A DNA stretch of 15,612 nucleotides from an uncultured Enterobacterales bacterium (GTDB lineage: Bacteria > Myxococcota_A > UBA796 > UBA2385): positions 1 to 15,612 of the forward strand of contig CAYXGP010000201.1 in assembly GCA_964464515.1 (NCBI GenBank), written 5' to 3'. The translations under genes and the position numbers were made by a program. The notes under the pieces are model-generated. The model was not told the DNA's origin. It saw only the letters and a list, made by a program, of their open reading frames with translations, and did no database searches. Positions 10,365 to 11,397 of this stretch are shown one piece after another. Numbering within the stretch: the first letter of the stretch is position 1; every line of letters begins with the position of its first letter.

Positions 10365-10655
10365 GTGGATCCCAGATGTCACCCGACCGCAGACCCGAGG
10401 CAGCACGTGGGCATCCTCCGAAAACTCGCTCGGCTGGTCCGCCCCCCCGCCCGCACCTTCGAGGTGATCCCCGTGAAGTCCGAGACGACGGATATCCGCA
10501 TCGAGCATGCCTCGGGGGTGGTCCTCCAGATCGAGCACGACGGCACGGTCATCCTGTCTACTCCCCGCAACATGGCGCTCCACGCCGACGGCGATCTCCG
10601 CATCTCCTCCGACACCCACATCGGCCTGGTGGCCCCGCGCATCGATCTCAATTGA
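10365..10655 (+). CDS. Small beta-helical spike-like protein with gp5/VgrG-C-terminal-type octapeptide repeats (83-96 aa)
   Basis: GTG start at 10365, or more likely GTG near 10404-10406, which has a GAGG Shine-Dalgarno 6 nt upstream. The C-terminal 55 residues show a strict 8-residue periodicity of alternating hydrophobics (DIRIEHAS/GVVLQIEH/DGTVILST/PRNMALHA/DGDLRISS/DTHIGLVA/PRIDLN), as in the triangular beta-helix of T4 gp5 and VgrG tips. Confidence 0.4.
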   Translation: MDPRCHPTADPRQHVGILRKLARLVRPPARTFEVIPVKSETTDIRIEHASGVVLQIEHDGTVILSTPRNMALHADGDLRISSDTHIGLVAPRIDLN

Positions 10656-10688
10656 GATCCTTTGAACTCGATCGAGCGGAGAGCACCC

Positions 10689-11222
10689 ATGGATCGCAAC
10701 GACGCCGACCATCGCCTGTGGCAGCATCGGCCGATCCATGTCGAGGTCACCGCCGACGCCTTCGTCTCAGTCGAGCCCTTTCTCCCGGGCGATGTCGAGG
10801 TCGTGCAGAGAGGGGAGAAGTGGGTGATTCAGGGGGTATATGGGTTCGACATCTTCACGGAGCACCGATTCACCGTTCGCATCGGGCGGGAGCTGCGCAC
10901 CTTTCGACGCTACGAGGACATCCCCGAGCGCTTCGACAACGTCATCGAGTTTCTCCCCGACCCCACCCACGACATCACCTTCATCTTCAGCTTCGAGAGG
11001 GGCGGTCGGCCCTTCTCCCACTCCCACTGGATCCATCACGACATGGATCCCTGGCCCGCAAAACTCCGTGAGCTGATCGCTCGCGAGACCAACGGAGGTT
11101 GGACCAATGCCAGCAGTCACACGAATCGGCGACGCCGACGTCTCCCATTGCTCCGGGATGGTGCGCCAGCTCGGGTCACCCGACACCTTCTGCAATGGGA
11201 TCCCGATCTCGCGCCAGAATGA
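10689..11222 (+). CDS. Hypothetical protein (about 177 aa as read). Its 3' end overlaps the PAAR gene out of frame by about 116 nt, so the C-terminal tail is doubtful.
   Basis: ATG 10689 with GGAGAG 7 nt upstream. Non-biased composition until about residue 140 (..WIHHDMDPWPAKLRELIARE), then an Arg-rich tail that looks like an off-frame reading of the PAAR gene. No family recognised. Confidence 0.35.
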   Translation: MDRNDADHRLWQHRPIHVEVTADAFVSVEPFLPGDVEVVQRGEKWVIQGVYGFDIFTEHRFTVRIGRELRTFRRYEDIPERFDNVIEFLPDPTHDITFIFSFERGGRPFSHSHWIHHDMDPWPAKLRELIARETNGGWTNASSHTNRRRRRLPLLRDGAPARVTRHLLQWDPDLAPE

Positions 11223-11397
11223 CGTCAACACCTCGCACCTGCTGCCGGGTATCCCGTGCCCGTCGCACGCTGCTCCGATCACCATCGGCAGCACCACGGT
11301 GTTCATCAACGGGATGGGCTGCGGCCGGGTAGGAGACGCCATCACCGGGTGTACCGCGGTGGCGGCGGGATCGACCGACACCTTCGCGGGGGGCTGA
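11107..11397 (+). CDS. PAAR-domain protein (spike-sharpening tip of T6SS / phage-like contractile systems), 96 aa
   Basis: The translation MPAVTRIGDADVSHCSG...GSPDTFCNGIPISRQND...GSTTVFINGMGCGRVGDAITGCT matches the canonical PAAR repeat pattern (MPAARxGD..H...GSxxVxxNGxPxARxGD..xCG...GSxTVFING). GGAGG Shine-Dalgarno 7 nt upstream of ATG 11107. Confidence 0.85.
   Translation: MPAVTRIGDADVSHCSGMVRQLGSPDTFCNGIPISRQNDVNTSHLLPGIPCPSHAAPITIGSTTVFINGMGCGRVGDAITGCTAVAAGSTDTFAGG

Follow-up and report, generated by a model that had tools for sequence, protein, structure and literature searches.

A phage-type spike-tip cassette in a marine Myxococcota chromosome, probably a tip for a hub encoded elsewhere

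The stretch of DNA analysed here (the window) comprises 15,612 nucleotides of contig CAYXGP010000201.1 from assembly GCA_964464515.1, an uncultured bacterium placed by GTDB in the Myxococcota_A, and carries a compact cassette encoding a short β-helical protein (A), an accessory protein (B) and a PAAR protein (C). Homology and synteny identify the cassette as a predicted spike-tip module of the T4-superfamily kind, and our reading, with a probability of roughly 0.7, is that this phage-type module is resident in the chromosome of a marine member of the Myxococcota and provides the tip for a hub encoded elsewhere. To our knowledge, PAAR-capped β-helical spikes are known only in phage tails, tailocins, extracellular contractile injection systems and type VI secretion systems (T6SS). 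Here the bacteria have kept the tip alone, as an 82-amino acid helix devoid of a hub-docking domain, together with a helper and a PAAR, which prompts one to ask what the tip is mounted on or used by.

The window has a GC content of about 70%, and the cassette together with a fourth gene, D, forms a set of four closely packed genes on the plus strand between positions 10407 and 11803.

10407..10655, plus strand: gene A, 82 amino acids, GTG start
10689..11222, plus strand: gene B, open reading frame (ORF) of 177 amino acids, ATG start, with a conserved core of residues 1-140 (10689-11108)
11107..11397, plus strand: gene C, 96 amino acids, ATG start, minimal PAAR predicted to form the spike-tip cone
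11399..11803, plus strand: gene D, 134 amino acids, TTG start, no recognisable family

Purine-rich Shine-Dalgarno-like sites are located ahead of A (GAGG, 10397-10400), B (GGAGAG, 10678-10683) and C (GGAGG, 11094-11098, 8 nucleotides before the ATG). The first-pass annotation of the window had described two genes, a small octad-repeat β-helix protein with no OB or gp27 module and a canonical PAAR at 11107-11397, with no contractile core nearby. Each of these elements is borne out by the searches described below, and the layout is corrected in two respects: a conserved gene, B, lying between the two had been overlooked, and the start of the small protein at 10365 is 14 codons too early, the GTG at 10407 being the position at which 31 homologue clusters begin with MGILRRL. 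The two roles suggested in that annotation, an orphan tip for a distant contractile system and a stand-alone needle, both agree with the results.

Profile comparisons confirm gene C as a canonical full-length minimal PAAR whose sequence places it in a subfamily common to marine and freshwater myoviruses (65-80% identity). The protein scores 31.7 bits against the Pfam PAAR_motif (PF05488), above the gathering score of 27, matches phrog_281 with an E value of 1e-17, and aligns with the solved PAAR structures 4JIW (chain D, E 2.5e-9) and 4JIV (E 3e-6). Residues 1-91 align to positions 1-90 of the 94 in the NCBIfam profile T6SS_PAAR_dom (NF033420) with a score of 48.5 bits, below the T6SS equivalog cut-off of 124. 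Three motif-equivalent segments are recognizable (PAVTRIGD, PISRQND and GCGRVGD), and His-14, Cys-15, His-44, Cys-51 and Cys-82 are conserved in the subfamily alignment as candidate residues of a zinc site. C is 65-72% identical over its full length to the PAARs of the T4-like cyanophages S-H34, S-B68, S-CREM2, P-HM1 and P-HM2 (Kyanoviridae), 80% identical to the PAAR of the viral contig L040, 69% to that of the P2-type baseplate cluster L043 and 20% to T4 gp5.4. Gene callers shorten the PAAR to 78 amino acids, and for this reason an exact-sequence look-up of the protein came back empty.

Protein A is shown by profile searches to be, as judged from its sequence, an OB-less homologue of the C-terminal β-helix of gpV/gp5/VgrG-type spikes. 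An 8-residue period runs through residues 27-82, making up about seven octads that each have a turn-forming residue at octad position 3 (by permutation, p is 0.004 when hydrophobicity is scored and 0.011 when turn residues are), and the chain terminates in the invariant motif THIGLxAPRIDLN. The AlphaFold2 (AF2) model predicts with high confidence an N-terminal amphipathic helix (residues 3-11) and a short β-meander with strands in residues 18-51, so that only some 25 residues, a helix plus linker, precede the β region. When the family profile of A was searched against 1.84 billion representative proteins, 60 hits were obtained. Beyond the A family itself these include many proteins of 180-260 amino acids whose final ~60 residues, up to the C terminus, make up the matched part (E 1e-10 to 1e-4), and alignment shows that the terminal motif SDTHIxLxAPRIDLN(P) is common to A and these distant spike relatives. 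In 13 of 20 hits scanned, PF04717 (Phage_base_V OB) is the best or second-best Pfam match and is located N-terminally, and some distant hits give DUF2345 or Gp5_C signals.

No such domain precedes the β-helix of A itself, in which Pfam finds neither OB fold family (PF04717 or PF06714) nor any other family at E ≤0.1, and no gp27-like hub domain is detected in A, B or D by Pfam, NCBIfam or PHROGs. NCBIfam and PADLOC return nothing for A, the PHROGs give marginal matches only (E 0.029), and comparison of the profile with PDB sequences yields chance-level matches, including a weak and non-significant one to the AlgoCIS spike chain 7aef_q. A tblastn search of the phage collection with A gave no match.

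Gene B encodes a protein with a fold predicted at high confidence to be a β-sandwich with a C-terminal helix. The family comprises 39 clusters; 38 share 47% identity or more with the window protein, and the remaining one, a 77-amino acid fragment, shares 39%. His-94, His-113, His-116, His-117 and Asp-118 are invariant or nearly so, and in one clade the N terminus is extended by a His/Asp-rich segment, for example MPPPHDHEDHSDLEHHHHGDAVDGHDHDHDG (L011 7187-7288; L020 10262-10369; proteins P0039, P0103, P0109, P0112 and P0113). The conserved residues and the His-rich N-terminal tails suggest that B may bind metal. Direct searches with B are largely empty: Pfam gives no family at E ≤0.1, NCBIfam and PADLOC return nothing, the profile search of PDB sequences stays at chance level, and the best tblastn match in the phage collection has an E value of 0.6. 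The link to phages is established through the PAAR, the fold search and profile comparison, and was not given by tblastn of A or B.

A Foldseek comparison of B with predicted viral structures returns as its best matches uncharacterised proteins of 145-222 amino acids (E values 2e-6 to 6e-4, TM scores ~0.4-0.6), and those among them with a named source belong to T4-like phages. The strongest are to T4-like phage proteins of 145-170 amino acids (E 2e-6, TM 0.59-0.60). One match is the P-HM1 "toxin" PHM1_082, encoded directly upstream of the P-HM1 PAAR, and another is a 145-amino acid protein of Acinetobacter phage 133 (UniProt D9I689), a phage that encodes a 145-amino acid orthologue of T4 gp5.1 (Acj133p155) between genes 5 and 5.4. 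At the profile level B matches phrog_24555 (hmmscan E 3.2e-4; hhalign probability 95.8%, E 6.9e-9), of which PHM1_081 and S-H34 gp191 are members, with the homology restricted to the C-terminal half of B (residues 61-136). The PHROG scan gives no hit of B to phrog_1168, the gp5.1 family, and hhalign of B against the gp5.1 alignment is co-linear and not significant (9.6% probability, E 0.003). By predicted fold and gene position, B may be the counterpart of T4 gp5.1.

The last 38 codons of B overlap the PAAR gene in another frame over 116 nucleotides (11107-11222) and encode an Arg-rich tail of 38 amino acids. The tail is variable within the family, owing to the extension of the ORF into the PAAR gene, and total lengths are 143-215 amino acids, and the TGA stop is created by conserved PAAR codons (xxT GAC). 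The overlap is also 116 nucleotides in L008 and L011, 65 nucleotides in L005 and 13-17 nucleotides in viral copies, and the long form is probably a by-product of stop-codon scarcity in high-GC DNA and not a frameshift signal. A programmed frameshift fusing B to the PAAR was considered and rejected, given the PAAR's own ribosome-binding site together with the varying tail, the origin of the stop codon and the short phage overlap. In two low-coverage assemblies (1.5x and 2.1x) B is frameshifted (L006 10263-10681 and L010 3553-4044), which could reflect assembly errors or pseudogenes.

The gene order of the cassette is found at the spike-tip loci of T4-superfamily phages, which likewise encode a β-helix, an accessory protein and a PAAR in this order with the PAAR start overlapping the end of the preceding ORF. 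The likeness extends to the PAAR sequence, to the homology between the C-terminal half of B and phrog_24555, and to the similarity of the B fold to phage proteins of gp5.1 size. In the Kyanoviridae the order is gp5 (hub plus lysozyme), a separate β-helix protein of 300-350 amino acids, a protein of ~280 amino acids, a small B-like ORF and the PAAR. The β-helix is thus already a separate gene with no OB fold in these phages, and the small ORF (phrog_24555, 72-84 amino acids) immediately precedes and overlaps the PAAR gene, being missing in S-CRM01. The separate helix protein, annotated as a virion protein in S-CREM2, matches the post-lysozyme part of gp5 (phrog_430) at its N terminus, matches A locally (hhalign E 6e-4), and has KIFLN or KIYLN as its terminus, much as A has APRIDLN. 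In T4 the genes run 5, 5.1, segC, 5.3, 5.4, and in other Straboviridae gp5, gp5.1, PAAR. Proteins of the gp5.1 family (phrog_1168) occur in 1239 phage records, and the gene lies between those for gp5 and PAAR in all four phages examined that have an annotated PAAR (T4, Acinetobacter phage 133, AS-sw and K575). T4 gp5.1 has been described as a late ORFan with no known function (PMC12407873), and the conserved gp5/gp5.1/PAAR triad appears to have had no role assigned so far.

Separate β-helix genes of cyanophages: L026 2855-3907; L027 2996-3961; L028 2990-3949; L029 2813-3865; L030 3405-4313
Genes for gp5.1: L032 3722-4216 (T4 gene 5.1); L033 2462-2899; L035 1447-1959; L036 1462-1944

A second parallel is provided by the gpV/gp45-type spikes of P2/Mu-like phages, in which a C-terminal β-helix ends in the SDTHIxLxAPRIDLN motif. 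The IMG/VR viral contig L043 holds a canonical, P2-type baseplate cluster in which a 184-amino acid gpV with its OB fold is succeeded by a B-like gene, the PAAR, gpW and gpJ. B-family genes are placed directly upstream of PAAR genes of this subfamily and, if there is a spike gene, downstream of it, in both the T4-like cyanophages and the P2-type cluster. Differences from these systems are also apparent. The bacterial chromosomal copy has no gp5 N-terminal/lysozyme, gp27, wedge, tube or sheath genes, A with its ~7 octads is far shorter than the cyanophage helix protein or the ~190-amino acid T4 gp5C, and B unites in 140 amino acids a seeming gp5.1-like sandwich with the small-ORF motif. The PAAR is close to those of cyanophages but shares merely the 20% identity given above with T4 gp5.4. 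Compared with gpV/gp45 spikes, in which an N-terminal OB fold seats the spike on the hub, A instead begins with the 25-residue helix plus linker. The comparison gives two uncharacterised protein families, gp5.1 and phrog_24555, a link to the spike tip, and the small, soluble bacterial trio would make a convenient system in which to ask whether gp5.1-like proteins assemble or load it.

The cassette is embedded among cellular genes. Within locus L001 (10 kb each side of gene B on the 47.5 kb source contig, 20 kb examined) the neighbors are genes for an ABC transporter, a methyltransferase, GSDH, a major vault protein (MVP), a Ser/Thr kinase and T2SS-F; neither this region nor the window contains sheath, tube or baseplate genes, and a PHROG scan of the cassette flanks gave zero matches. 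Four samples from JGI and ENA yielded identical assemblies of the locus, with contigs reaching 47.5 kb. The A-B-PAAR arrangement recurs in at least nine other neighborhoods on high-GC contigs, including one of 539 kb, and the NCBI records among them are labelled Myxococcota; a scan of GTDB genomes yielded two cassette loci only. Pairwise ratios of nonsynonymous to synonymous substitution (dN/dS) for A, B and the PAAR are mostly 0.09-0.34, unsaturated pairs included, with 0.10-0.34 for the PAAR and a value of 0.45 for B in the deepest comparison only (window versus L011). Across lineages diverged to dS >1 the ratios are 0.1-0.3, and these sequence-based estimates show A, B and C to be kept under purifying selection in bacteria.

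The short-A form of the cassette is also present on the IMG/VR viral contigs L038 and L040, the viral status of such contigs being drawn from how IMG/VR classifies them, from the tRNA island and from PHROG hits. L038 has a GC content of 36% and neighbors resembling ribonucleotide-reductase and glutaredoxin genes by sequence, and L039, a further viral contig with the cassette, and L040 have a GC content of 39%. L040 derives from a 99.6 kb viral contig in which the cassette begins 40 nucleotides past an island of 13 tRNA genes that are interspersed with small phage ORFs (L040 5184-9961). In a neighbor-joining tree of the PAAR the two clades from bacteria are interleaved with those from viruses, and in all 10 bacterial loci the cassette is lower in GC content than its flanks, by 0.5-6.4 points, which is not the case in the viral loci. 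Taken together, context, selection, tree and GC evidence indicate long retention in bacteria following transfer between phages and bacteria that probably took place more than once.

In the arrangement we propose, three A chains would intertwine through their seven octad repeats to form a short triple-stranded β-helix, with one PAAR cone docking on the blunt helix end formed by THIGLxAPRIDLN. B is a putative assembly helper or adaptor at the junction of A with the PAAR. As A has no OB domain of the kind that normally seats a spike, the needle would be mounted by way of the conserved N-terminal helix of A on a hub whose gene lies elsewhere, either in a contractile system of the host or in a phage. 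D, or the protein D2 that replaces it, may be a lineage-specific accessory or cargo.

Several points weigh against the reading of the cassette as a tip for a hub encoded elsewhere. No hub, tube, sheath or baseplate gene is found within 10 kb in any bacterial context, which makes the carrier hypothetical. In the AF2 monomer model of A residues 52-82 are unstructured and the C-terminal helix does not form, as expected for a helix of three intertwined chains. The absence of a predicted β-helix, which the first-pass annotation would have counted against its interpretation, is not cleanly applicable here, with the unstructured C-terminal part of the monomer on one side and significant profile homology to spike C termini on the other. 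The assembly of an A trimer with the PAAR is drawn from homology only, the part given to B is a proposal, and metal binding by B is putative. The phage 133 protein D9I689 appears, by length and organism only, to be Acj133p155. Finally, some contigs classed as viral contain cell-like genes, the related L062 and L063 encoding a porin, a fatty-acid desaturase and AdoHcy hydrolase.

Among other explanations, the cassette could be a domesticated T4-like spike tip used with no contractile machine of its own, either as a decoy or replacement part entering the baseplates of infecting phages, in defence or to alter host range, or as a self-contained, PAAR-capped mini-needle that has a cellular role and the lineage-specific fourth protein as cargo; we hold this to be unlikely, if conceivable.

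Somewhat more doubtful is a role in T6SS biology, in which A would not itself be fired and would be a TvpC-like scaffold holding the PAAR in its folded state, B serving as chaperone, until the place of A is taken by a real VgrG, the T6SS being encoded elsewhere. Tvp systems use VgrG mimics lacking gp27 (TvpC, with DUF6484 or DUF3540) to hold the PAAR (PMC13373197), T6SS chaperones (DUF2169) are encoded between vgrG and PAAR (PMC11883445), and PMC13098142 reports orphan T6SS islands. The cassette has in common with the T6SS vgrG-adaptor-PAAR and Tvp modules that a spike-like trimer, a helper and a PAAR are encoded side by side in this order, in some cases at a great distance from the core machine, and several of the distant A-profile hits have weak DUF3540 or DUF2345 matches. 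Francisella, with a minimal VgrG and the PAAR-like IglG (PDB code 6U9E, PdpA-VgrG), is listed among the closest known systems. However, TvpC retains the OB fold that A does not have, and A, B and C show no Pfam match to DUF6484, DUF3540, DUF2169, DUF4123, DUF1795 or DUF4150. The PAAR is of phage type, being nearest to phage PAARs and below the NCBIfam equivalog cut-off for T6SS, and no T6SS genes are found within 10 kb in any cassette context.

Improbable, in our estimation, is a role as an anti-phage or host-range tool, in which tip parts made by the host enter or titrate the baseplates of infecting T4-like phages, poisoning or altering the progeny virions. In its favor, the cassette closely duplicates a module found in phages, with the PAAR identity to the viral copy and the interleaved clades noted above, it is retained under selection in the absence of every part needed to act alone, and its GC content below that of the flanks is as expected for acquired DNA. 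However, PADLOC-DB gives no component match for A, B, C, D, D2, E (the gene following D) or MVP, the neighborhoods are not defence islands, the literature searched contains no precedent, and a structural role would account just as well for the purifying selection acting on the three proteins.

Very improbable is a reading in which the cassette has no function at present, being either what is left of a decaying prophage or phage DNA wrongly joined to a bacterial contig during assembly: the phage affinity of the genes and the frameshifted B in L006 and L010 would agree with it, but the same context was assembled independently in the four samples, the GC content is near that of the host with no other phage genes in the flanks, dN/dS stays low at dS >1, and both frameshifts are in assemblies of 1.5x and ~2x coverage.

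An equally weak alternative makes the cassette a functional partner of the vault-like MVP, co-regulated from a shared divergent promoter region, and is to be considered highly unlikely, as the two lie 238 nucleotides apart and divergent in the window but none of at least nine other contexts has MVP within 10 kb, and tblastn with MVP matches the window lineage only. The homologue itself is confirmed by Pfam (MVP_shoulder E 2.7e-16, Vault_3 E 2.4e-7), and MVP homologues in Myxococcales have been described before (bioRxiv 10.1101/872010). The first-pass annotation had proposed that the spike genes are divergently transcribed from the mvp promoter region and may be co-regulated with it, and had called for a check of whether mvp and PAAR co-occur in other genomes. 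The divergent orientation is real, whereas the coupling of the cassette to the vault gene is not supported, adjacency to MVP being confined to the lineage of the window. The remaining features of the region are as follows.

7724-10168, minus strand: mvp, 814 amino acids, major vault protein homologue
10169..10406, no strand: intergenic region between the divergent genes mvp and A, 238 nucleotides
11800-12648: gene E, 282 amino acids, with a repeat at 11829-11880
12749-14509: Ser/Thr protein kinase gene

The intergenic region presumably holds the cassette promoter; a scan for the sigma-70 consensus gave no match in it, and promoter, terminator and repeat scans of 9900-12900 were not informative.

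Gene D begins 1 nucleotide past the PAAR stop codon and, by tblastn across loci, is found behind the cassette in the majority of the high-GC copies from bacteria and is missing from the viral copies. Searches with D give no hit in Pfam, NCBIfam, PADLOC or the PDB and a marginal PHROG match (E 0.048). In one bacterial clade its place is taken by D2, a lipoprotein-like protein of 207-227 amino acids (L010 4419-5042; L011 8018-8701; L020 11162-11773; L021 11078-11698). D2 is Gly-rich and by eye strand-rich with no family match, has a lipoprotein-like signal, LLAACS, in L011, and might be an outer-membrane protein. The start of gene E overlaps the stop codon of D through GTGA. The encoded protein, found in the window lineage only and with no family match, has a signal peptide-like N terminus arising from a 9-nucleotide tandem repeat, LTVLPVLTVLTVLTV, and a C-terminal hydrophobic anchor.

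A Ser/Thr kinase gene is located no more than three genes from the cassette in the window and in four further loci (L008 5944-8463; L010 1142-2221; L011 4778-6025; L020 7851-9098), a proximity that may reflect the abundance of kinases in Myxococcota. In one clade a kinase-FKBP pair is placed immediately ahead of gene A.

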